64,000 nucleotides of DNA, from contig OZ242010.1 of the NCBI GenBank assembly GCA_965204745.1, positions 2,464,001 through 2,528,000 of the forward strand, read 5' to 3'. Position 1 is the first letter of the stretch. The number at the start of each line of letters is the position of its first letter. Position numbers and translations under genes: made by a program. Origin of the DNA: Candidatus Latescibacterota bacterium. Its GTDB lineage: Bacteria > Latescibacterota > UBA2968. The notes below the pieces were generated by a model. The model saw nothing but the letters and a program-made list of their open reading frames with translations, did no database searches and was not told where the DNA came from. Shown here piece by piece: positions 29,692 through 42,044 of the stretch.

Positions 29692-32166
29692 ATGGGTATG
29701 ATCGGATTTTGGCTTGTGATTTTTACCGTTGCAGGGCTTTGCGCGCAGGCGATGGGCCAAGGCGTGGTCAAAGAAATTGCGGGCGATCTGGCCTATGTGG
29801 CGGGGTTGAACGGCGATGCGACTTTGGGCAGTCAGTTGCAGGTGGATGAGGACGGCGCGACGCTTCAGGTGATCAAAAAGCTCGACGATGTGCTCGTGGC
29901 CCGCGTGGTCATGGAAAATGGGGCGCCCGTGAAAGTGTCCGACCGGATTCGCATCCTCGCCACGCCGGCTTCTGATGGCGCGCCGCGCACGGTGTACGCG
30001 GTTCGCGTGGACCAAGGCCCCAAATTAGATGGGCACTTGGACGACGCGGCGTGGCGACAGGCCAAGCCCATCGAGGGCTTTGTGCAACGCGATCCGGGGT
30101 ATTGGGTGCCGAGCACGGAGCGCACCATTGCCCGCATTCTCTACGACCATGAGAAAATCTATTTCGGGTTTGCGTGTTACGATTCCGAGCCGCAAAAGAT
30201 CGTGGCGAACAACATGCGCCGGGATTCGGAGGTGTGGGGCGACGACAACGTGCAAATCCTGTTGGATACGTACAACGACCGGCAGACCGGAGCCTTCTTT
30301 TTCGTCAATGCTCTGGGCGCGAAACGCGATCTCATCCTGTCCCAAGAGGGGCGCACGTATAACGATGACTGGGATTGTATCTGGGAGGCCAAAGGCCGCC
30401 GGCACGACGAGGGCTGGTCCGTGGAGGTGGCGATTCCATTTGCCCAACTGCGGTTTAAGGACAAAGCAGACGCAGCGTGGGGCATCAACTTGGCGCGGTT
30501 CATCGCCCGCAAAACCGAGTCCGCGGCCCTGATGGTGGGGCGGCGATCCACATCCCCAACGCAGCGTTATCGCACGTCTGATCTCGCGGAACTGCGCGGC
30601 CTGACCGCGTTGAAGACCAAGCGCGTGTTGCAGGTCAAACCCTATTTGTTGCCCGGCCTGCTAAGGGATTTGAAGGCGGACGACCCGGCCGCGCAGGGGG
30701 CCTTTGAAGCGGGTGTGGATGCGCGCTATGGGATCACGCCCAATATGATGCTGGACTTGTCCTACAACACGGATTTTGCCCAAGTGGAAGGCGATCAAGA
30801 GCAGGTGAACTTGACGCAGTTCTCACAATTTTTCCCGGAGAAGCGCGAGTTTTTCCTCGAAGGCGCCAGTCTGTTCGACTTTGGCGAGGCCGCCACGCGC
30901 CGCGGCGGAGACAGCCGCCCGCCCACGATTTTGTTTTACAGCCGGCGCATCGGTCTGGAAAACAAGCAACCGGTGCCGATTCTCTTGGGTAGCAAGTTGG
31001 CGGGCAAAGCTGGCAAGACGAGCATCGGCGCGTTGAATGTGCTGACCGATGCCGCGCTGTTGCCAGATAGCACGCGGGTCGAGCGTAGCAATTTTTCCGC
31101 GTTGCGCGTGAAGCGCGATGTGTTGGCGCGATCCAATGTCGGCGCGATTTTTGTGAACAAGCAAACCCGCATCCCCAACTCGGGATGGGACGACTACAAT
31201 CGCGCGGCCGGGGTGGATTTCAGTTTTTCCCCGTCCAACGCCCTCAATTTTCAGGGGTTTTACGCGCGCACCTGGGAGGTGAAAGACGCGGATGAGACCG
31301 GGGATGCAGTTGAGACCGGGGACGCGATGTTTTTCCAGAGCACTTATACGGGTAGCGTGTATTCGGCTTCGGCAAAGGTGATCGATATCGAAGCGGCATT
31401 TCAGCCCAGGGCCGGGTTTGTCAATCGCCGCACGGGCCTGCCGGGCCTGCGTCGCTACGAGTCGTCTTTCAGGGCGCGGATTCCCTCTGCGTGGAAGCAC
31501 ATCCGCTACATTTCCACCGGGCCGCGCCTGCGCCTCATCACGGACAGGCAGAACGCGGTCAAGTTTTGGGATGTGCAGTGGGCGACTTATACGCGCTTCA
31601 ACACCGGCGATTGGTACCGCGTTGAGGTGACGCAAACGCACGATGTGGTCGAGCGCACGTTCAAGCCATCCAAAAAGCGACCCGACGTGATTATCCCGCA
31701 CGGCACGTACACATTCACGAAATTCAGGACCGGGCCTTTTCCGAGCCGCTCGCGGAAAATCCGCCCGGAGTTCGATTTTCAGTTTGGCTCTTATTACACG
31801 GGCAAGCGATACAAGTTTGCACTCGAAAACAGCTATCGGCCCTCGGGCCGCCTGTCTATCGAAACCGATTACGAAATCAATTGGGTGCGCCTGCCCGAGG
31901 GCAATTTCAATATCCAAGTGTTGAGTAACCGGCTGATTTACTCGTTTTCCACGGATTTTTACGTGAAGCTGTTCGCGCAGTGGAATAACGACAGCGAGCA
32001 GGCCAATGTGAATGTGTTGATGAATTACCGGTTCCGCCCCGGCAGCGATCTCTACCTCGTATTCGATCAAGGCTATGCCCGCGATCCAGACCTCGACCCC
32101 AGCGGCGCATGGGCCGAAAGAAATCGCGCCGTGCTCGTCAAGGTGTCGTACATGCTGGGGATGTGA
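29692..32166 (+). CDS. DUF5916 / CBM9-like domain secreted or outer-membrane protein
   Basis: Signal peptide, PKLDGHLDDAAW, NTDFAQVEGD, FFPEKREFFLEG, FYSRRIG and C-terminal VKVSY; RBS AGGAG. Confidence 0.82.
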   Translation: MGMIGFWLVIFTVAGLCAQAMGQGVVKEIAGDLAYVAGLNGDATLGSQLQVDEDGATLQVIKKLDDVLVARVVMENGAPVKVSDRIRILATPASDGAPRTVYAVRVDQGPKLDGHLDDAAWRQAKPIEGFVQRDPGYWVPSTERTIARILYDHEKIYFGFACYDSEPQKIVANNMRRDSEVWGDDNVQILLDTYNDRQTGAFFFVNALGAKRDLILSQEGRTYNDDWDCIWEAKGRRHDEGWSVEVAIPFAQLRFKDKADAAWGINLARFIARKTESAALMVGRRSTSPTQRYRTSDLAELRGLTALKTKRVLQVKPYLLPGLLRDLKADDPAAQGAFEAGVDARYGITPNMMLDLSYNTDFAQVEGDQEQVNLTQFSQFFPEKREFFLEGASLFDFGEAATRRGGDSRPPTILFYSRRIGLENKQPVPILLGSKLAGKAGKTSIGALNVLTDAALLPDSTRVERSNFSALRVKRDVLARSNVGAIFVNKQTRIPNSGWDDYNRAAGVDFSFSPSNALNFQGFYARTWEVKDADETGDAVETGDAMFFQSTYTGSVYSASAKVIDIEAAFQPRAGFVNRRTGLPGLRRYESSFRARIPSAWKHIRYISTGPRLRLITDRQNAVKFWDVQWATYTRFNTGDWYRVEVTQTHDVVERTFKPSKKRPDVIIPHGTYTFTKFRTGPFPSRSRKIRPEFDFQFGSYYTGKRYKFALENSYRPSGRLSIETDYEINWVRLPEGNFNIQVLSNRLIYSFSTDFYVKLFAQWNNDSEQANVNVLMNYRFRPGSDLYLVFDQGYARDPDLDPSGAWAERNRAVLVKVSYMLGM

Positions 32167-32180
32167 GGAAATGAAGGGGG

Positions 32181-32256
32181 TAGGTAGTGTTGACATTTTA
32201 TTTTTTTCCTTTATGCACAAATTGGCAAATGTGTTGCTTGCTCATTTAAGGCGTTT
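32181..32256 (+). repeat. About 76-bp dispersed repeat, copy 1
   Basis: Matches the reverse complement of 42561-42637. Confidence 0.85.
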
Positions 32257-32911
32257 CCTTTGATGGCTTCTCGCTCTGGTTGCTCCGATGGCGTTGACCG
32301 AGAGGGACCTATCCCCCGGCCCCTTTCCTACGAGGAAAGGGGAGCAAAGCCCTTTGATGGCTTTTCGCTCTGGTTGCTCTGATGGCGTTGACCGAGGGGA
32401 CCTATCCCCCGGCCCCTTTCCTACGAGGAAAGGGGAGTAAAGCCCTTTGGTGGCTTCTGGCTCTGGTTGCTCTGATGGCGTTGACCGAGAGGGACCTATC
32501 CCCCGGCCCCTTTCCTACGAGGAAAGGGGAGTAAAGCCCTTTGATGGCTTCTGGCTCTGGTTGCTCCGATGGCGTTGACCGAGGGCATAAAGCGACTAAA
32601 AAACCCCCTCATCAATCCCCTCGCAAAATCGCTCACCGTTTTCCCCTTCCTCATAGGAAAAAGGGAGTAAAGCCCTTTGATGGCTTCTGGCTCTGGTTGC
32701 TCCGATGGCGTTGACCGAGAGGGACCTATCCCCCGGCCCCTTTCCTATGAGGAAAGGGGAGTAAAGCCCTTTGATGGCTTCTGGCTCTGGTTGCTCCGAT
32801 GGCGTTGACCGAGGGCATAAAGCGATTAAAAAACCCCCTCATCAATCCCCTCGCAAAACCGCTCACCGTTCCCCCCTTCCTCATAGGAAGGGGGGCTAGG
32901 GGGGTAGGTCC
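32257..32911. repeat. BIME-like mosaic of REP-like palindromes and identical linkers
   Basis: Six ~46-bp linkers (32257, 32351, 32444, 32538, 32674, 32768) alternate with CCCCTTTCCTAnGAGGAAAGGGG palindromes; terminal copy inverted. Confidence 0.9.
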
Positions 32912-32935
32912 CAACAAAACGAAAGGAAAGCGACG

Positions 32936-34567
32936 ATGAACGACACAGGCAATCCTCTGCACCATGAAAATTACAGGAGACTCTTTGGTTTAGAGATTTA
33001 TCTGACACCCGTGTTCATTTTTTCTAGCCTCGCCATTGTCGGTCTCGTCGCCGGTGCCCTCGTGTTTGAGGAAGGCGCGACGCGCGTGTTTGGCGATGTC
33101 CGCGTGTGGATCATGACGAATTTCGATTGGCTGTTCATGATCACCGCCAACTTCGTCCTGCTCTTTTGCGCGTTTGTGGCTGTCTCGCCACTCGGCAAGG
33201 TGCGCCTCGGCGGGGAAGATGCAAAGCCCGATTATTCCTACGCGACATGGCTTGCCATGCTCTTTGCCGCAGGCGTGGGGATCGGGCTTTTGTTTTTTGG
33301 CGTGCTCGAGCCGGTGACCTACTTTCAAAACCCGCCGCTCGGCCTCGAGCATCTCGATCAAGTCTATGACACAGAAACGCGCTACACAGCCGAGAATACG
33401 CCCGACATCGATGACGCAGCGGTTCGGGCCGCGAGTGCCTTGGGAATCGCCGCGACGACCTTTCACTGGGGATTGCACGGGTGGGCAATTTACGGCGTCG
33501 TCGGCTTAACCCTCGCGTTTTTTGCGTACAACAGGGGGTTTCCCCTCACCATCCGCTCGGGGTTCTACGTGCTGTTCGGCGAGCGCGTATGGGGCTGGCC
33601 CGGGCACCTCGTGGATACGTTTGCCATCTTGGCGGGCCTGTTCGGCCTCGCGACCTCCCTGGGCCTGGGCGTGCAACAAGTGACCTCGGGCCTCAACTAT
33701 TTGTTTGGGGTGCCCGATAGCCACGCCACAATGGTGCTACTGATCGTGGGGATTACGGCCATCGCGCTGATATCGGTGCTGTCCGGCCTCGATGTGGGGA
33801 TCAAGCGTCTCAGCCAACTCAACATCGTCCTCGCGCTGGTGTTGCTGTTGGCGATGATCCTGCTCGGCCCCACGCGCTACATTTTTGATAGCATGGTCGC
33901 TGGGTTAGGCGAATACGTCACAAAACTCGTGCCCCTAAGCAACTGGATCGGCCGGACAGACACGGCCTTTTTGCACGGATGGACGACGTTTTATTGGGCG
34001 TGGTGGATTGCATGGGCGCCGTTTGTCGGCACGTTTATCGCCCGCATTTCCAAGGGGCGCACGGTGCGCGAGTTTATCTCCTGTGTGCTCATGTTCCCAA
34101 CCCTGTTGTGCTTGGTGTGGTTTGGCACGTTTGGCGGTATGTCCATTCACCAGTTCCTCACCGAGGGCTACACCGGCGTCACCGAGGCGGTCGAGGCGTC
34201 TCAACTCGCCCTCGTGCTGTTCAAAATGTTCGATGGCCTGCCGCTATCGGGCCTGTTGTACGGCCTGCCGCTGGCGGGCCTCCTGTCCTGCTTTGGCATG
34301 CTTTTGACCATCATCTTTTTCATCACCTCGTCGGACTCTGGCTCGCTGATCATCGACACCATAGCCGCCGGCGGGCGCACAGACGCGCCCGTGTCGCAAC
34401 GGGTGTTCTGGTGTACGGCCGAGGGCGCGGTTGCCATTGCCCTCCTGCTCGGCGGCGGCCTCAAGTCCATGCAGGCGGCCACCCTGGCCACGGGCCTCCC
34501 CTTCGCTTTTGTGCTCATCGGGATGTGCGCCTGCACCTGTCTCGGCCTCCGCAGGGCATCGCGGTGA
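32936..34567 (+). CDS. BCCT family (betaine/choline/carnitine) transporter
   Basis: WLAMLFAAGVGIGL, FHWGLHGW, WTTFYWAWWIAWAPFVG and TSSDSG. Confidence 0.93.
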   Translation: MNDTGNPLHHENYRRLFGLEIYLTPVFIFSSLAIVGLVAGALVFEEGATRVFGDVRVWIMTNFDWLFMITANFVLLFCAFVAVSPLGKVRLGGEDAKPDYSYATWLAMLFAAGVGIGLLFFGVLEPVTYFQNPPLGLEHLDQVYDTETRYTAENTPDIDDAAVRAASALGIAATTFHWGLHGWAIYGVVGLTLAFFAYNRGFPLTIRSGFYVLFGERVWGWPGHLVDTFAILAGLFGLATSLGLGVQQVTSGLNYLFGVPDSHATMVLLIVGITAIALISVLSGLDVGIKRLSQLNIVLALVLLLAMILLGPTRYIFDSMVAGLGEYVTKLVPLSNWIGRTDTAFLHGWTTFYWAWWIAWAPFVGTFIARISKGRTVREFISCVLMFPTLLCLVWFGTFGGMSIHQFLTEGYTGVTEAVEASQLALVLFKMFDGLPLSGLLYGLPLAGLLSCFGMLLTIIFFITSSDSGSLIIDTIAAGGRTDAPVSQRVFWCTAEGAVAIALLLGGGLKSMQAATLATGLPFAFVLIGMCACTCLGLRRASR

Positions 34568-34703
34568 TACTGGTACGATAGGGCTAAGAGCTGTTGCACT
34601 GCAAGTTAGATCACCGTAGTTTATTTGGGATTACATCTTGGGGCAACCACCCATTTCTTGAGCACCTCGTATTGACCCGCCATACCCATACAGCGAGGAA
34701 AAA

Positions 34704-35048
34704 GTGCGTTTTTGGGAGGAACAGGACAGAATCAACCAAGAGCTAATTCCTCGGGTCATTCGTCAGAACGAACTGCTAAGCCAGCACATAGCCGAGCACG
34801 ACAACCTGCAACAAATACTCAGCGATACCATCCAAAAGGCTCTCACCGAGCAGGCCCAACAGTACGAATCAGCCTTAAATGCCGCCCAAAAACAGCTCGA
34901 TGAAACCCATGACGAGATCACCCAAAAGACTATGACCAAAGCGTTGGAGACCCTGAATCAAGAGGCACGTCAGACTCGAAACCGCCTTGCTGTAATCACC
35001 GTTGTCAGTATCGCCATCGCCGCACTAATGTTCGCCGTTCTCACATAG
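34704..35048 (+). CDS. Small coiled-coil protein with C-terminal TM anchor (possibly 5'-degraded)
   Basis: Q/E-rich helical sequence ending in one hydrophobic helix; 12 bp from the next gene with AGGAGG. Confidence 0.55.
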   Translation: MRFWEEQDRINQELIPRVIRQNELLSQHIAEHDNLQQILSDTIQKALTEQAQQYESALNAAQKQLDETHDEITQKTMTKALETLNQEARQTRNRLAVITVVSIAIAALMFAVLT

Positions 35049-35060
35049 GAGGCAACCGCT

Positions 35061-36179
35061 ATGACCATGCAGTCGCTAAACCTGTTACCGGAACTGCGAA
35101 AACTCCCCGGGCCGGAATCCGATCAACGCAAATCCTTTCGGGATATGATCGCTGAGCTGCGAGGCATGGAGCGAGGGCTTATGGCAGTCGAAACCGTGTC
35201 TGCGACCTCGTTCGCGATGTGGGGTATTTTCGATACTATCAATGTGGACGATACCCTAGAAAAAGCTCACGAAATGGCCTTCGGCAACTACGAGGGTTCA
35301 TTGCACGACCACTGGCAAGAAATGTTACGAGGCGATGAGGATGCCTCCGCTGGATTCATCAGTGCCCTCAAAGGCAAAGTAGCCGAATTTAACGCCGCCG
35401 AAATGCTAGAACAAAACGGCTATACGAACGTAGAAATCGCCGCGAATCCCATCCAGCCAGAATGGGACATCAGCGCTATTTCTGCGGAAGGAGAGGAAGT
35501 CCTGTTCCAAGTTAAAACCGGAGTGGAGGGGTACGCTAGCGACGTGAGGGAAAGAATGGAAAATACCCAGGATATCGAATACTTGATCAGTACCGAACTA
35601 TACGACAAAATCGCCGAGCGAAGCCCTGAACTCATTGATCAGATGGCCGAGATAGGCTCCGATTACGAACTAGTGGAAGGAATAAAGGACGGTCTCAATA
35701 CCCTCAGCGACAATATGGACCTTGACCTACCCGATAGCATCGGAGAGATAGTCCCCTACGCCGGCGCAATTATGATGGGTGCTCGTCTGATATACAACGT
35801 CATCAAAACCGAGAAAGAGTTCAGCACTGCTGACCGCACCACTAAGAACAAGATGCAAGTCGTCCAAGCCCTTACCGTAATGTCCCGATTTGGCATCTCA
35901 ACCGGCCTTTCGATGGTCGGTGGACTGGGCGGGGGTACTATAGGCTCATTCATACCGGGCATTGGCAACCTGATCGGCGGCATCGCCGGCACAGTATTTG
36001 GGGCCGGCATGGGAATGTACCTGAACAAGCACCTCCAACCCCATATGTTGAACCTAGCCCTGAGCATCACTGGACTCACCCACGCAGACCTCTTCTACTA
36101 CAAGAACAAGCCCCATATTGATAGGGTAGCCTTGTCTTTCCGGCAAGACGCTAACATGCTAGCCGCTGTCCCTAGTTAA
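35061..36179 (+). CDS. Hypothetical protein: PD-(D/E)xK-like core + C-terminal glycine-zipper helices
   Basis: KGKVAE ... PEWD ... FQVKTG followed by GGLGGGTIGSFIPGIGNLIGGIAGTVFGAGMG. Confidence 0.6.
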   Translation: MTMQSLNLLPELRKLPGPESDQRKSFRDMIAELRGMERGLMAVETVSATSFAMWGIFDTINVDDTLEKAHEMAFGNYEGSLHDHWQEMLRGDEDASAGFISALKGKVAEFNAAEMLEQNGYTNVEIAANPIQPEWDISAISAEGEEVLFQVKTGVEGYASDVRERMENTQDIEYLISTELYDKIAERSPELIDQMAEIGSDYELVEGIKDGLNTLSDNMDLDLPDSIGEIVPYAGAIMMGARLIYNVIKTEKEFSTADRTTKNKMQVVQALTVMSRFGISTGLSMVGGLGGGTIGSFIPGIGNLIGGIAGTVFGAGMGMYLNKHLQPHMLNLALSITGLTHADLFYYKNKPHIDRVALSFRQDANMLAAVPS

Positions 36180-36220
36180 ACGGGATAGAGTCCCACTTGT
36201 GCAAGGCGAGCACTGCTGGC

Positions 36221-36249
36221 TTGACGAGGAACAGGCGTGATTATATAGT
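36221..36249 (+). promoter_or_regulatory. Sigma70-type promoter upstream of the cas remnant
   Basis: TTGACG-17 bp-TATAGT; RBS CAGGAGG before the ATG at 36320. Confidence 0.65.
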
Positions 36250-36319
36250 GGGGACAGGCAGAATACTTGGATGGAGATAGAAAGGACAACACACTCTGAT
36301 GTGACAGGAGGCCCTGAGT

Positions 36320-36712
36320 ATGGCCGAACGAGATGCTTTGATTTTGGGTGCGCTGTTGCACGATATTGGGAAGTTTGAATTTCGCGCCAATCGCACGTTT
36401 ACGCCGCATACAAATTACGGTGGCTACTTTGTTCAGGAGTACCTCAATCGGTTTCGCTGTCTGGACGATATTCGCGAGGATATTCGCAGAAAAGTAGCGT
36501 GGCATCACGAGGCCGAATTGGCCGTTACAGCAGAAGGCGCGGATCGGTTTATGACCTTGTCGCTCTACGCGCCTCGAGAGTCGGAAATGGCTACGGTGCG
36601 TTCGGATGGGGCGTGGTACAATTTGACCGTGCGAAAAGGCAAAGTGGGCGGGCCGGATTACGCGGGTGAGACCTTAAATGATGCGATGGGTTTGCAGAAA
36701 GGAGAAGAGGAT
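36320..36712 (+). pseudogene. Fused remnants of cas10/csm1 (HD N-terminus) and a csm4-like C-terminal segment, in frame with the downstream CARF gene
   Basis: aa 1-66 GALLHDIGKF..H..G..HH (Cas10 HD start); aa 67-116 RFMTLSLYAP..YNLTVRKG (Csm4-like). Confidence 0.65.
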
Positions 36713-37987
36713 ATGAACTCGGCGATGCTGGTGACAGTGGGGGTGGGGAACACGGTTTCGGATGCGATTGCATTTGCCATTCGGGGCATACGCCCGGATT
36801 TTGTGGTGTTTCTGACGACGGAACAAAGTGAAAAACAGACGATGTCCGCTGTTGTGGAAAAGCTCGCTTTGTCTCCTAAAAATTATACATGTCGCCGCGT
36901 GGCTGACGAGGATGATGTTGAAAACTGCACCTTGAATTTCATCGCTGCGATCCAAGATTTGAAAACGCGGGGATTTGACGTAAAAGACATCGTGGCGGAT
37001 TTCACAACGGGCACCAAGGCGATGTCTGCGGCACTTGTGGCGGCTGGCATTGGGGAGCCCATTGGCAAGTTGTCTTATATCATTGGGGAACGCGGTGAAG
37101 GCGGGATCGTTATTTCGGGCACGGAACGCGCCTTGTCGCTCGAACCAAACCGATTGACCATCCGCCGCATGACGGAACAGGCCATCGCGCAATTCAACGC
37201 CACGCGCTTTGACACATGTCTGGAAATGCTCGATCAGATTGTGGGTTTTACTCGCCTGCCGCAAGTCACTCAAGCGATGGCTACCTTGCAAACGCTTGCA
37301 AAGGGATATCGGGCTTGGGATCAATTCGACTACAAATCGGCCATGCCGCATCTGAATTGCTTGAAGGGAAACGAACTGTTGCCCAAGTGGGGATTGAAAA
37401 GCAAGTTGGAGCAACACAAGGCTTTTTTGCACCGCGTGAGTAAGTCCGAGTACGGCGTCGAGCGCGCCCTGGATTTGTGGAACAGCGCAGAAAAACGCAA
37501 GGCAGAAGGACGGTTCGACGATGCCATCGCGCGTCTGTATCGGTTGATGGAATACATTGCACAAGTGCAACTCTTCAACAATCACAAGGGCCTGAAAACC
37601 AGCGACCTCGATGTGCAGTTGCTACCCGAACCCCTGCGACCACAGTATCTAAAAAAAGTCGGACGATCCGACAAAATCACCCTGCCGCTGTATGAAAGCT
37701 ATGAGTTGTTGAAGCATTTGGGCGATAGCTTGGGATGTTTGTTCGCAGACGAGTATGACGGAACGGGTGAGCTAAAAAAAGTGCTAGGGCTGAGAAATCA
37801 GTCCATTCTCGCGCATGGCTTTGGGCCGGTCTCTCAAAAGGGATGTGAAACAGCACGGGATTATGTCCGGAAGTTTATGGTGCAGGCATTTCCAGACTGG
37901 GCGGAGAAAGCCAAAGAGGCGGTATTTCCGGCTCTGAATCCCGCGCCAGTGATTGAGAGTTTGGGATTAGCAGGTCAATCAGGCTGA
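36713..37987 (+). CDS. CRISPR-associated CARF-HEPN protein (TIGR02710/Csm6-like)
   Basis: Own RBS (AGGAG) and ATG; VTVG, FLTTEQS and DFTTGTKAMSAAL (CARF); RFDDAIARLYRLME and RNQSILAHG (HEPN RX4-6H). Confidence 0.85.
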   Translation: MNSAMLVTVGVGNTVSDAIAFAIRGIRPDFVVFLTTEQSEKQTMSAVVEKLALSPKNYTCRRVADEDDVENCTLNFIAAIQDLKTRGFDVKDIVADFTTGTKAMSAALVAAGIGEPIGKLSYIIGERGEGGIVISGTERALSLEPNRLTIRRMTEQAIAQFNATRFDTCLEMLDQIVGFTRLPQVTQAMATLQTLAKGYRAWDQFDYKSAMPHLNCLKGNELLPKWGLKSKLEQHKAFLHRVSKSEYGVERALDLWNSAEKRKAEGRFDDAIARLYRLMEYIAQVQLFNNHKGLKTSDLDVQLLPEPLRPQYLKKVGRSDKITLPLYESYELLKHLGDSLGCLFADEYDGTGELKKVLGLRNQSILAHGFGPVSQKGCETARDYVRKFMVQAFPDWAEKAKEAVFPALNPAPVIESLGLAGQSG

Positions 37988-38021
37988 TTGGGCTGGTTCT
38001 GACGCGATAAGGCCGGTTGCG

Positions 38022-38324
38022 GTGCCGATCCCATCGCACAAAAAGGACGGTCTCTCCGATGTGGCACACCACCGTCCGCGAGGCTGGCAGAATTTCGTCA
38101 CTCGCCTTTGTGAGATCGATTGCGTAAGCCGGGTTTCTTATGACGAGGCCGCTTATGGCGGTGAAAAAGTTAAGATACTCAACGGTGACAACGGCACCAT
38201 CGCGGTGCGATATGGCCCAACGGGCGAGGAGTTGCCCTTGCGCGTTGAGACCTCTGCTCGCGGGGAGGTCCAAACGAAACTGGTTGAGGAATACATTGCA
38301 AAAAACCTTATTCGGAGGAATTGA
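38022..38324 (+). CDS. Small hypothetical protein, DUF2103-like, probably the 3' remnant of a longer gene
   Basis: HH..F..RL..V.RV..G.I.V..L.VET.ARG..QT pattern; the frame is open back to a stop at 37968 and has no clear RBS. Confidence 0.45.
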   Translation: MPIPSHKKDGLSDVAHHRPRGWQNFVTRLCEIDCVSRVSYDEAAYGGEKVKILNGDNGTIAVRYGPTGEELPLRVETSARGEVQTKLVEEYIAKNLIRRN

Positions 38325-38364
38325 TTTGTAAATCCTTGGGTTGAATGATTCGTTCAAAAAAAGC

Positions 38365-38394
38365 AAAAGCCAGACGCATTGTCTGGCTTTTTTT
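38365..38394. terminator. Bidirectional intrinsic terminator
   Basis: AAAAGCCAGAC-GCATT-GTCTGGCTTTTTTT between convergent genes. Confidence 0.8.
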
Positions 38395-38466
38395 GTGCAA
38401 CAGTTCAGCTAAAAGTCTCTTTCAGGTGCTGGCATGGTTTAAGTCAGTAAAACCGCTACCCTTTTC

Positions 38467-38661
38467 TCACTCCTCTTTTTTTTCGTCTCTCTCCTCATTT
38501 CTATTCCATTCCTGCAAGGAAATAAACAACGCGCCCAAGAGAAATAAGATAAGGGAAAAACCCCACCCATCTCCATCATAGACGCCGCCACGCGACTCTG
38601 CAACCCAAAACGGCAACACGCAACCTATGAATACCAATCCCAATCCCGATATAATGAACAT
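38467..38661 (-). CDS. Small two-TM membrane protein
   Basis: 64 aa, two hydrophobic helices and a charged tail; GGAGGA RBS. Confidence 0.55.
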   Translation of the reverse strand: MFIISGLGLVFIGCVLPFWVAESRGGVYDGDGWGFSLILFLLGALFISLQEWNRNEERDEKKEE

Positions 38662-38746
38662 GACAATTCCTCCAATGGTGGTTTAGTTTAAGCGGACGGT
38701 GATTATGCCATCAACAGAGATGGCGACCTATACCGCTGACTGTCTT

Positions 38747-39035
38747 TCACCGAACGATTGATGACATACCGCGAGAACGCGGTGAGTTTCCGAGTTTGAA
38801 CATGATCAGCGTGCCGAGGGTCAACAAGGTCGTGATCTGGATTTCCAATAATCCAACACAAAGCCGTAAAAAGTCGGCTGTTGATTTCTCGAAAGCCGCT
38901 GTCGATGCGTGTCGACAATTCGCGCTGACCTCGTGCTAGATTGGTCAACCGATGGCCGATCTGTTCAATGACGCCTTCGTGCCTGCTCGTGCGGGCGTCC
39001 AATTCAGCACATCTGCTCCCTGTGGGCGGCAACAT
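38747..39035 (-). pseudogene. Frameshifted small coiled-coil + C-terminal TM protein (DUF1640-like)
   Basis: RBS AAGGAG; removing one base at ~38843 gives WIIGIQITTLLTLGTLIMFKLG. Confidence 0.5.
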
Positions 39036-39325
39036 TTGTTCTTCTCCTTGTGGTGAATGGTGAGTTAAAACGGCACGTCTTGCCGAGGTCATGACAAACA
39101 TACTCAATTATCTCAAAATTTTCAAGTACTGATAACTCGTTTTGCCGACCACTGATAGCTGCTCTCGCCCGATTTGAAACATTGCTTTGCGTGCCGAATC
39201 CGTTATATTTGATAGCGCATAAGCGGGCAAAACGCAAGCATGCATTGTCGTCGAGTTGTTGCGCTGGGCAGAGGCGATAACATCTATTTGGATCGGTGGA
39301 TCGAATTTGGCATAGGGTTTGAAAT

Positions 39326-40681
39326 ATGGATGCTTACGATGCGTGGTTTCAGTGTTTTCGCGGGTGTGCGGGTCGCTATCCGTTGACCGAGGTGATTTAC
39401 ACCTGCCCGACGTGTGGGGGGTTGCTCGAGGTGGCGCATGATATGGCGGTGCTCAAGCGCGAATCGGGTGCGTATTGGCGGGCCTTGTTCGACAGGCGGT
39501 ATATGCGAACCGAGTGGCCTTATGGCAGTTCGGTGTGGGGGAAGAAGGAATTGGTCTGCCCGGTGGTTCACGAAAACAATGTGGTGTCGATGTACGAAGG
39601 GGGCAGCAATTTGTTTTGGGCCGAGCGTCTGGGCCGGGAAATTGGGGTCGATGATTTGTGGGTCAAGCAATGCGGCAACAGCCATACCGGGTCGTTCAAG
39701 GATTTGGGCATGACCGTGTTGGTGTCGATGGTGAAGCAGATGCAGTTCGAGGGCGTGCATATCCCGGCGGTTGCGTGTGCATCCACCGGGGACACGTCTG
39801 CGGCACTGGCTGCGTATTGCGCGGCAGCGGGGATCCAAGCGGTGGTGTTTTTGCCGAGGGACAAAATCTCGACCGCGCAACTCTTGCAACCCTTGGCCAA
39901 TGGCGCGCTGGTGCTGAGTTTGGAAACGGACTTTGACGGGTGCATGAAACTCGTGCAGGAGATTTGCCATGAGGAACACATCTATCTCGCCAACTCGATC
40001 AATTCCCTGCGCGTGGAGGGGCAAAAGACGATCAGCATTGAATTGGTGCAACAATTCGATTGGGAAGTGCCGGATTGGATCGTGATCCCGGGCGGGAACT
40101 TGGGCAATGTGAGCGCGCTCGGCAAAGGGTTTCTCGAAATGCAGGCACTGGGGATCATCGACCGGTTGCCGCGCATCGCTGTGGCCCAAGCCCACAGGGC
40201 CAACCCGCTCTATCGCAGTTTTGAAAAGAACTTTGACGATTTTGAACCCATTCGCGCCCAGCCCACCTTGGCCAGCGCGATCCAAATCGGCAACCCGGTC
40301 AGCAGGGAAAAGGCGACGCAAACGCTCAAATTATTCGGCGGGGTCGTCGAGGAAGCCAGCGAGCAGGAATTGGCGGATGCAGCGGCGCGCGCGGATCGCA
40401 CGGGGTTGTTTGCGTGCCCACACACGGGCGTCGCGTTTGCGGCATTGTTCAAGTTGATCGACAAGGGCGTCATTCAAAAGGATGACCGGGTGATCGCGAT
40501 TTCGACCGCGCACGGCTTGAAATTCAACGAATTCAAACTCGGGTACCACCGCGATGAGTTGCAGAACTGGCGCGTCAACCCGCGCTATGACAATGCGCCG
40601 GTCGCGTTGCCGCCCGACGCGGATGCGGTCAAACGGGCGATTTTAGAGCGGGTGGAAGCCGACGAAAAGTTGACAGGATAA
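39326..40681 (+). CDS. thrC: Threonine synthase
   Basis: [40 protein letters not shown] and STAHGLKF. Confidence 0.95.
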
Positions 40682-40776: not shown

Positions 40777-40839
40777 CCGGGCTTTTTGGCCCGGTTTTTT
40801 TGCGTACAGCGCGGGGCTTTTTGTGGCTCCGCTTTTTTT
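40777..40839 (+). terminator. Two terminator-like hairpins between the riboswitch and metB
   Basis: CCGGGC-loop-GCCCGG-T7 (40777-40801) and GCGGGGC-loop-GCTCCGC-T7 (40811-40839). Confidence 0.65.
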
Positions 40840-40850
40840 GGAGATGGCGC

Positions 40851-42044
40851 ATGGTGGAAAAGCGCGACAGGTATGCGCCCTGTTCGGGCACGCGGGCCGT
40901 TCACGCAGGGGAAGACTGCGACCACTGGGGACAGGCGTTGACCGTGCCCATCGCCCAAACATCGACCTATGTTTTTCGGGACTCAGGGGCCGTAAAGGCG
41001 TTTGTGGCCGGCGAGAACCGGCAGATCGACTACGGGCGTTACGGCAACCCCACGCAACATGTAGCGGAATGCAAACTCGCGGAATTGGAAGGCGCCGAGG
41101 CCGGGATCTTGTTTGCATCGGGCATGAGCGCGGTGACGACCACCTTGTTGGGCATGTTGTCGAGCGGGCAACATGCGGTGATCATGGACGACTGCTATCG
41201 CAAGACCGCGCAGTTCTGCGAGATGGTGTTGCGAAAATTTCGCATTGAAACGACATTTGTTCACGCGGGGGATTGCGCTGCAGTGGAAGGGGCCATTCGG
41301 AAGGAAACGCGGGTGATCATTTCCGAATCGCCGACCAACCCGCACCTCAATGTGATCGATTTGGAAAAGCTGGTGCAAATCGCAAAAAACCATCGGGTCA
41401 AGACGATCATCGACAGCACCTTTGCCACGCCGTTCAACCAGCGTCCGCTCGAATTTGGCGTGGACTTGGTCATCCATTCGGCGACCAAATACTTGGGCGG
41501 GCACAATGATTTGATGGCCGGCATCGTGCTCGGCAGCGCGCCATTGGTCGGTGCGATAAGGGATTATCGAGGCATTTTGGGCGGGGTGATCGACCCGCAT
41601 TGCGCGTATTTGCTGATCCGAGGGATCAAGACCTTTCCGCTGCGGATGGGCAGGCAAAACGAGACCGCGTTGCGGTTGGCGCGGTTTTTGGAACGACACG
41701 CACGGGTCAAGCGCGTGTATTATCCCGGCTTGGAGAGCCACCCGCACTACGATGTGGCCCAAGCGCAGATGCGCGGGTTTGGCGGGTTGGTGAGTTTTGA
41801 TTTGGACGCGGATGAGGCCGGCACGTTATCTTTTATCGACCGCTTGCAAATCCCGCGGATCGGCGCGAGCCTCGGCGGCGTGGAGAGCTTGGTGTCGCAT
41901 CCGGCGTCGATTTCGTATTACGAGTTGGCACGCGAAGACCGATTGGCGATTGGCATTGCGGACGAGTTGGTGCGCTATGCGGTGGGGATTGAAGATGCCG
42001 AGGATATTATACGCGATGTGGGGCAGGCACTCGACGCGGTTTGA
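40851..42044 (+). CDS. metB: Cystathionine gamma-synthase (Cys/Met PLP enzyme)
   Basis: YGRYGNPT, FASGMSA, ESPTNP, DSTFATP, HSATKYLGGHND and SLGGVESL. Confidence 0.85.
   Translation: MVEKRDRYAPCSGTRAVHAGEDCDHWGQALTVPIAQTSTYVFRDSGAVKAFVAGENRQIDYGRYGNPTQHVAECKLAELEGAEAGILFASGMSAVTTTLLGMLSSGQHAVIMDDCYRKTAQFCEMVLRKFRIETTFVHAGDCAAVEGAIRKETRVIISESPTNPHLNVIDLEKLVQIAKNHRVKTIIDSTFATPFNQRPLEFGVDLVIHSATKYLGGHNDLMAGIVLGSAPLVGAIRDYRGILGGVIDPHCAYLLIRGIKTFPLRMGRQNETALRLARFLERHARVKRVYYPGLESHPHYDVAQAQMRGFGGLVSFDLDADEAGTLSFIDRLQIPRIGASLGGVESLVSHPASISYYELAREDRLAIGIADELVRYAVGIEDAEDIIRDVGQALDAV

Follow-up and report, generated by a model that had tools for sequence, protein, structure and literature searches.

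How does a single open reading frame (ORF) come to hold the beginning of one type III CRISPR-Cas gene, the inside of a second, and the whole of a third? The question is raised by a 555-aa ORF on the forward strand of a 64,000-nucleotide (nt) stretch of Candidatus Latescibacterota DNA (GenBank assembly GCA_965204745.1, contig OZ242010.1, positions 2,464,001 to 2,528,000), hereafter the window, in whose coordinates positions are given unless stated otherwise. The ORF, pointed out by the first-pass annotation of this DNA, is present in the ORF list at 36320 to 37987 with its stop codon included and corresponds to entry P0121 of a public collection. It runs from a Cas10 start through a Csm4 piece into a complete CARF-HEPN effector. 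Very probably it is what remains, joined in frame, of a type III-A (Csm) operon whose recent, strain-level collapse affected one lineage of the species; the effector would have been left latent and orphaned, and the fusion would be a by-product. The source genome is a single contig of 5.48 Mb (completeness 97.65).

To identify the N-terminal pieces, BLASTP comparison with the intact locus of a genome of the same genus, G018, was taken as decisive. Residues 1 to 68 of the ORF align with residues 1 to 68 of G018 Cas10 (63/68 identical, 93%; E 8e-43), and at the DNA level positions 36318 to 36524 share 92.3% identity with the 5′ end of G018 cas10 (blastn). Profile searches agree with this assignment, which had already been proposed from the sequence: the Pfam HD domain covers residues 3 to 67 (E 7.6e-7), and TIGR02578 (Cas10/Csm1) aligns residues 5 to 77 with its positions 2 to 75 of 753 (E 2.4e-6). 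The cas10/csm1 5′ remnant (36320 to 36524, + strand, codons 1 to 68) holds the first part of the HD domain only. A full-length Cas10/Csm1 with HD, Palm1, and Palm2 (GGDD) domains is not encoded by the ORF, which scores 26.5 bits with TIGR02578 against a cut-off of 170, and PADLOC Cas10 models cover residues 1 to 69 of the 555-aa protein. Next comes an internal csm4 remnant (36509 to 36655, + strand) in the native csm4 frame; here, residues 64 to 112 of the ORF align with residues 210 to 258 of the 320-residue G018 Csm4 (39/49 identical, 80%; E 1e-24), with DNA identities of 87% to G018 and 91% to G016, a second genome of the same genus (blastn). Profiles recognize this fragment less well: Pfam Csm4_C reaches 21.3 bits over residues 74 to 128, under its cut-off of 25.9, cas5_csm4 aligns residues 71 to 110 with its positions 216 to 253 of 304 (E 0.026), and TIGR01903, at 13.9 bits against a cut-off of 55, does not indicate a full Csm4 RAMP protein. 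Residues ~111 to 131 have no protein homology and derive from the 26 terminal nt of csm5, translated in a frame other than its own, and from the 5′ leader of the effector gene that comes next. The earlier suggestion that residues 67 to 116 are Csm4-like thus held for most of that segment, but the tail from ~111 onward is neither Csm4 nor Csm5.

The parental operon can be read in relatives. A homologue search over 61 genomes (the source genome and 60 relatives) gave matches in 12. In both G018 and G016, three separate genes a few kilobases apart are matched, one by each part of the ORF, and they belong to an operon ordered cas10-csm2-csm3-csm4-csm5-CARF/HEPN. The G018 locus comprises PrimPol, cas1, cas10/csm1 (793 aa), csm2, csm3, csm4 (320 aa), csm5 (608 aa), and a TIGR02710 gene, with all scored proteins above their curated cut-offs (Cas10, 542 bits; Csm2, 79.6; Csm3, 242; Csm4, 163; Csm5, 92; TIGR02710, 210). 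Behind the operon, both genomes have an array in which a 37-nt repeat occurs at least 50 times. The pieces present in the window are 83 to 92% identical in DNA to these loci and stand in the same order, whereas PrimPol, cas1, full-length cas10, csm2, csm3, csm4, csm5, and the array are present only in the intact loci, which occupy genomic sites other than that of the window. The longest match, 36649 to 38009 at 83% identity to G016, starts 29 nt short of the csm5 end and finishes 22 nt beyond the effector stop codon; to the right of 38009, no homology to the G018 or G016 loci was detected by blastn.

Alignment to these intact loci, which the first-pass annotation had recommended, allowed the breakpoints to be mapped on both genomes. 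Junction 1 lies in a 16-nt imperfect microhomology (36509 to 36524, + strand) that aligns with cas10 as well as with csm4 of the relatives, in keeping with the earlier estimate of ~36515. Relative to G018, 4764 nt are missing there, a length divisible by 3; relative to G016, the missing stretch is 4058 nt. Junction 2, earlier put at ~36667, was relocated by the DNA alignment to a 7-nt microhomology between csm4 and the 3′ end of csm5 (36649 to 36655, + strand), conserved at 6/7 positions in G018 and 7/7 in G016; here, 1990 nt are missing in G018 coordinates and 1999 nt in G016 coordinates. The frame is open across both junctions, as had been claimed. Downstream of junction 2, the last 26 nt of csm5 and its TAA stop codon (36675 to 36677) persist (36649 to 36677, + strand), and position 36675 falls in codon phase 1 of the 555-aa frame. 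Since the frame after junction 2 is not that of csm5, the TAA is missed and translation runs on through the leader into the effector ATG. The effector frame of G016 is itself already open upstream, giving an open frame of 473 aa.

From these junctions, the following course of events may be proposed. An ancestral cas10-csm2-csm3-csm4-csm5-CARF/HEPN cassette would have lost two stretches by illegitimate recombination at microhomologies. The first deletion would have run from cas10 codon ~64 to 69 to csm4 codon ~210 to 215, with the native frames of both genes kept, and the second, starting at csm4 codon ~258, would have spared just 26 nt of csm5 ahead of its stop codon and changed the frame relative to csm5. 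A ribosome starting at the cas10 ATG would then read 131 residual codons before it reached the native effector start. By homology, the effector is predicted to act as a dimer whose RNase activity is triggered by cyclic oligoadenylate (cOA), namely, cA4 or cA6; it would be tolerated while inactive for want of a signal, and its gene would be whole because the collapse is too recent for decay to have set in.

The start signals of both the first and the last gene of the operon survive. The cas10 Shine-Dalgarno sequence AGGAGG (36306 to 36311, + strand) stands 8 nt before the ATG at 36320, and homology to the G016 cas10 locus begins at 36306 (blastn). The sigma-70-like promoter candidate TTGACG-17-TATAGT (36221 to 36249, + strand; 10/12 positions matched) sits to the left of that point. 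Both the promoter site and the ribosome-binding site named by the first-pass annotation do exist, but the former is not above chance, as 2 such sites occur in 34500 to 38700 against 3.8 ± 2.1 in shuffled sequences. The second start that it had placed at 36713 was borne out as the native one: the effector Shine-Dalgarno sequence AAGGAG (36699 to 36704) precedes the in-frame ATG (36713 to 36715) by 8 nt (the whole site spanning 36699 to 36715, + strand), and positions 36690 to 36708 are the same as in G018 and differ by 1 base from G016. In the three sequences read (P0122, P0131, and the G018 ortholog), the 424-aa effector likewise starts with MNSAM or MNLAM. The 555-aa protein, the 424-aa protein, or both may be produced. 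For annotators, the 555-aa “HD/CARF” protein of this genome should be taken as a warning, as it is a pseudo-fusion whose predicted native product is the 424-aa effector.

We then considered the state of the effector itself. Residues 132 to 555 of the fusion constitute an intact TIGR02710/Csm6-like CARF-6H-HEPN gene of 424 aa (36713 to 37987, + strand). TIGR02710 aligns residues 150 to 520 with its positions 3 to 381 of 384 (193.6 bits against a cut-off of 83.9), and the PADLOC CARF_HEPN and Csx1 models match with E values down to 2e-86. Among Pfam domains, Csm6_6H (residues 286 to 368; 44.6 bits against 27.6) and the Cas_Cas02710 HEPN domain (residues 384 to 520; 98.3 bits against 27) exceed their cut-offs, and CARF_Card1 reaches only 17.9 bits, below its cut-off of 24.6. 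In an alignment of 42 family sequences, the window protein keeps all 30 invariant columns. These include D227, T229, G231, T232, K233, M235, and S236 of the CARF domain and R492, N493, S495, and H499 of the HEPN domain, the latter within an R-x6-H motif, so that the motifs pointed out beforehand (DFTTGTKAMS and RNQSILAH) do contain family-invariant positions. We take the invariant CARF residues to be the ligand site and the HEPN R...H pair to be catalytic, by homology.

Structure prediction gave the same picture of an intact effector. In the AlphaFold2 model, the predicted local distance difference test score (pLDDT) is mostly above 90 over residues 132 to 552 and falls below 50 at residues 1 to 42, 45 to 48, and 58 to 131, where the alignment has no row other than the query and a low score is weak evidence of disorder. 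The best Foldseek match of the model is Thermus thermophilus Csm6 (TtCsm6; E 3e-16, ~22% identity), including its cA4 complex 8JH1 (E about 1e-16), followed by Enterococcus italicus Csm6 (EiCsm6). A search of the Protein Data Bank (PDB) with the single window sequence gave no matches, and the family profile matched TtCsm6 by sequence (E 1.8e-16). TtCsm6 (TTHB152; PDB 5FSH, 8JBB, and, with cA4, 8JH1; TIGR02710/Cas_Cas02710) shares the CARF-6H-HEPN architecture with the window protein, and the HEPN R...H and CARF GTK motifs are conserved between the two. The identity is nevertheless only ~22%, and the activating ligand of the window protein is predicted by homology. A further difference from TtCsm6 is that the window protein no longer has a Cas10 partner and is preceded by 131 extra codons.

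Whether the signal for such an effector could come from the same genome was examined next. When eight Cas proteins of G018 were compared with the source genome by tblastn, the only matches were Cas10 residues 1 to 68, Csm4 residues 210 to 258, the full CARF protein, and one cas1. TIGR02578 found nothing in the genome beyond the remnant (28 bits) and a 13-bit chance match; the best E value of TIGR02577 (Cmr2) over the genome was 0.012; the Cas10 palm domain PF22335 and Csm3 (TIGR02582) gave no matches in it; and PADLOC Cas10 models matched N-terminal HD-region stretches only. The cOA synthase and the interference complex have thus been removed, as first proposed: in G018 and G016 the effector stands beside a type III Cas10 complex, and in the source genome no such complex was found. 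Because the genome lacks a Cas10 cyclase and a Csm backbone, the effector is most likely latent.

The search for signal makers and arrays that had been advised earlier thus turned up no other Cas10, but it did reveal two defense systems outside the window. The first consists of two pairs of a cyclase and an E2-like protein of the cyclic-oligonucleotide-based antiphage signaling system (CBASS) type, at G000:C1:3009256-3012750 (L021) and 3328235-3331609 (L022); the second of these pairs adjoins a type III methyltransferase-like ORF. The other is a type I-C system (cas3, cas5c, cas8c, cas7, cas4, cas1, and cas2) at G000:C1:1458780-1480000 (L018, L019), to which the only cas1 match of the genome belongs (32% identical, ~1.03 Mb away from the ORF). 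Its array extends over ~13.9 kb with a period of ~73 nt, which by arithmetic corresponds to roughly 190 repeats. The 37-nt repeat of this array reads GTTTCAATCCGCTCCCCTCACGGATGTAAGGGGAGAT, and its reverse complement ends in ATTGAAAC, as does the repeat linked to type III-A in G018 and G016. CRISPR RNAs for the lost Csm complex, for which the island held no array, may have been borrowed from the type I-C array. The absence of an array and of cas1 near the ORF, stated in the first-pass annotation, was upheld: a genome-wide repeat scan found no array-sized cluster within the range of the window. The G018 37-nt repeat had no match in the source genome with up to 8 mismatches allowed.

A conserved HD-CARF-HEPN family, which would have made the fusion an established architecture, was not found: among the 120 homologues listed (of 385 at E ≤ 0.001), none covers more than 79% of the 555 aa, and those listed are effectors of about 400 to 450 aa. 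Among the matches listed from Joint Genome Institute (JGI) metagenomes, none is closer than 40% identity. The 90%-identity cluster that contains the exact 555-aa protein has 22 members, 15 of them listed, and their lengths are 555 aa (three proteins), 424 aa (seven), 433 aa (one), 381 aa (one), 332 aa (two), and 199 aa (one). The 555-aa form is confined to this one cluster, where it accounts for 3 of the 15 listed members, the two further proteins being encoded on contigs of 5536 and 6280 nt. The three do not differ at all in residues 1 to 131, and in residues 132 to 555 the others show 12 (5536-nt contig) and 3 (6280-nt contig) differences. This pattern would fit a single recent origin of the deletion allele together with an older effector polymorphism, perhaps shuffled by recombination.

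Other alleles of the locus were found when contigs of four public runs (X2, X4, X9, and X11) were placed on positions 34000 to 40000. In X4 and X11, which are sponge metagenomes of two studies, one contig each runs from 36214 directly into 366 different letters and returns to the window sequence at 36649; the flanks of this allele in X4 differ from the window at 20/1518 and 19/1651 letters. The 366-letter allele is devoid of the cas10 and csm4 pieces of the window, and homology resumes exactly where the csm5-derived sequence of the window begins. A contig of X9 carries 311 letters before 36649, the last 30 of which match the 3′ end of csm5 (26/30 in G016 and 24/30 in G018, by eye). Given the restart of homology at 36649 and these csm5-like letters, the 366-letter allele probably retains csm5 sequence that the window lacks. 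The two alleles would then not be derivable from each other, and the operon would have collapsed at least twice. X4 also holds two small pieces of lower depth, in one of which cas10 continues beyond 36524 and in the other csm4 beyond both 36515 and 36655, into sequence unlike that of the window, as expected if a minor strain carried uninterrupted cas10 and csm4. At least three coexisting alleles can thus be read, namely, uninterrupted genes, the double deletion, and a different collapse.

Between the options that the first-pass annotation had left side by side (an orphan effector, a new chimera, or recent decay), these distributions favor recent decay, since the fused form occurs only inside one 90% cluster and beside other alleles of the locus. 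The effector gene itself has decayed elsewhere in the genus. The G015 ortholog has an in-frame TAG codon, and G016 has two extra partial copies: one at ~4.99 Mb (L025), in which the final 19 csm5 codons are joined to two-thirds of the effector gene (96% identity with the main locus), and one at ~1.44 Mb (L026), in which the 3′ half of the gene stands before a second array that belongs to the same repeat family. Rearrangement and decay around the effector gene are recurrent in the genus.

Several observations nonetheless weigh against a latent effector in a decaying locus. The fused allele is present in at least three slightly different strains or assemblies, with its Shine-Dalgarno sequence and promoter-like site intact; both collapsed alleles keep the effector ORF, which may reflect selection for its retention; and the two CBASS-type pairs are other sources of cyclic oligonucleotides. 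The ratio of nonsynonymous to synonymous substitution rates (dN/dS) of the effector is not raised in the window lineage (window-G018, 0.31; window-G016, 0.38) compared with the pair of intact loci (G018-G016, 0.38), so that no relaxation is visible, although this ratio cannot split evolution before the deletions from evolution after them and has almost no power for a recent event. The remnant pieces, of 43 to 63 codons, gave values of 0.19 to 0.46. Lastly, no contig from the four runs bridges junction 2.

The explanation that draws most on these points is that selection has kept the effector as a stand-alone sensor-RNase answering cOA made by CBASS, a mobile element, or co-resident strains, or else that its CARF domain serves as a cOA sink or ring nuclease. 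Retention of the whole ORF in two different collapsed alleles speaks for it, as do the full set of invariant residues, a dN/dS of 0.31 to 0.38, and the presence of the two CBASS-type pairs, and CARF genes outside CRISPR loci are reportedly common according to the 2020 CARF census of Makarova et al. The blank Cas10 palm searches leave this explanation with no cyclase known to make cA4 or cA6, however, and an allele this young needs no selection for its ORF to be intact. CD-NTases (cGAS/DncV-like nucleotidyltransferases) are known for cyclic di- and trinucleotides and are not known to make cA4 or cA6. The stop codon in G015 and the truncated copies in G016 further indicate that the gene does decay in the genus. 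We therefore consider selective retention unlikely; a retained stand-alone role of the effector is possible but unsupported. A broader proposition, that within one sponge-associated species Cas10-Csm was deleted at least twice independently with the Csm6-type effector spared and that, if selected, this would represent an effector-only immunity based on cOA signaling after CRISPR loss, strikes us as distinctly speculative and rather improbable.

If the 555-aa protein were a new HD-CARF-HEPN chimera that gained an activity or a mode of regulation from its Cas10 HD fragment, this would account for the frame that is open from the cas10 ATG behind a good Shine-Dalgarno sequence and for the same N-terminus in three 555-aa proteins. 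Fusions of CARF to HD phosphoesterase domains do exist (PMC4012209). Here, however, only 68 of 793 Cas10 residues are left, corresponding to Pfam HD positions 23 to 90 of 116, the next 44 residues are an internal Csm4 piece succeeded by out-of-frame csm5 and leader sequence, and most of residues 1 to 131 has a pLDDT below 50 with no alignment depth. The architecture occurs in no relative outside the 90% cluster. The open frame is itself weak evidence for a selected chimera, because two random deletions would leave it open by chance in ~1/9 of cases (estimated as 1/3 × 1/3). We take the fused N-terminus to be a by-product and not a functional HD domain, and we hold the chimera to be very improbable.

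We find it scarcely credible that the true genome has an intact operon and that the junctions were produced by misassembly of a mixed population. Related samples do contain several alleles of the locus, from which a chimeric assembly could arise, and cover around junction 2 is interrupted, X2 having none between the end of one piece at 36651 and the start of another at 36784, and X9 none over 36211 to 36612. Junction 1, however, is bridged by an X2 contig (record 10; 36235 to 36651, 0 differences, with 274 letters to one side and 127 to the other; a run possibly not independent of the source sample), a 7-nt overlap would presumably be too short to mislead an assembler, and the two other contigs with 12 and 3 downstream differences encode both junctions. 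The confirmation by spanning sequence that had been called for was thus obtained for junction 1 but not, among the four runs, for junction 2, whose support beyond the window is the identical 131-aa N-terminus in the two other 555-aa proteins. As predicted products of separate contigs, the three 555-aa proteins support both junctions independently of any one assembly.

A recently collapsed Csm operon that left an in-frame scar thus remains the reading that we prefer, and the observation and main inference of the first-pass annotation were right. That CRISPR-Cas loci lose components and that CARF genes occur on their own are both familiar, and the window locus resembles stand-alone CARF effectors and degraded CRISPR-Cas loci in having an ancillary effector without a signal-producing Cas10 complex. 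Unlike degraded loci generally, it allows the parental operon, both breakpoints, and coexisting alleles to be read directly, and its remnants form one open frame with the effector. No in-frame cas10-csm4-csm6 remnant was described in the titles or abstract openings searched. The locus is a clean, base-resolved example, drawn from public data, of a type III CRISPR locus falling apart. It also bears on a wider question, whether cOA effectors that outlive Cas10 are simply undecayed or are kept for a reason, for which the natural allelic series would offer a convenient test.

The remnant is carried by an island (36175 to 38357, + strand) to which an empty site corresponds in G016, where the flanks are nearly contiguous: G016 positions 2015143 to 2016627 correspond to window positions 34697 to 36174 (89%) and 2016665 to 2016728 to 38358 to 38420 (88%), with a gap of only 37 nt between the two matches. 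Neighbouring genes, BCCT-transporter-like and threonine-synthase-like, are unlinked to the intact loci of G018 and G016. Downstream of the effector, the island also contains a 100-aa ORF (38022 to 38324, + strand) with no NCBIfam or Pfam match, and the flanking ORFs at 34704 to 35048, 35061 to 36179, and 38703 to 39107 likewise gave no informative family match. In or near the last of these, which is on the minus strand, an apparent strain-level indel was seen: X2 skips 98 nt between 38814 and 38913, and X4 and X11 contigs skip 98 nt between 38808 and 38907.

Two minor features lie farther from the ORF. The only repeat found by a tandem-repeat scan of 31500 to 39500 has a 94-nt unit and occupies 32257 to 32889, just upstream of the BCCT-type transporter ORF (32936 to 34567); it can be described as 3.5 and 1.8 copies of this unit or as two copies of a 230-nt period, with 93 to 96% matches. 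On the other side, a SAM_alpha (SAM-II) riboswitch (RF00521; 40706 to 40780, + strand) scored 46.8 bits against a gathering score of 36. It stands just upstream of a 414-aa ORF (40800 to 42044) that by eye looks like a cystathionine gamma-synthase type; the family is described as alphaproteobacterial, and the present source belongs to Latescibacterota.

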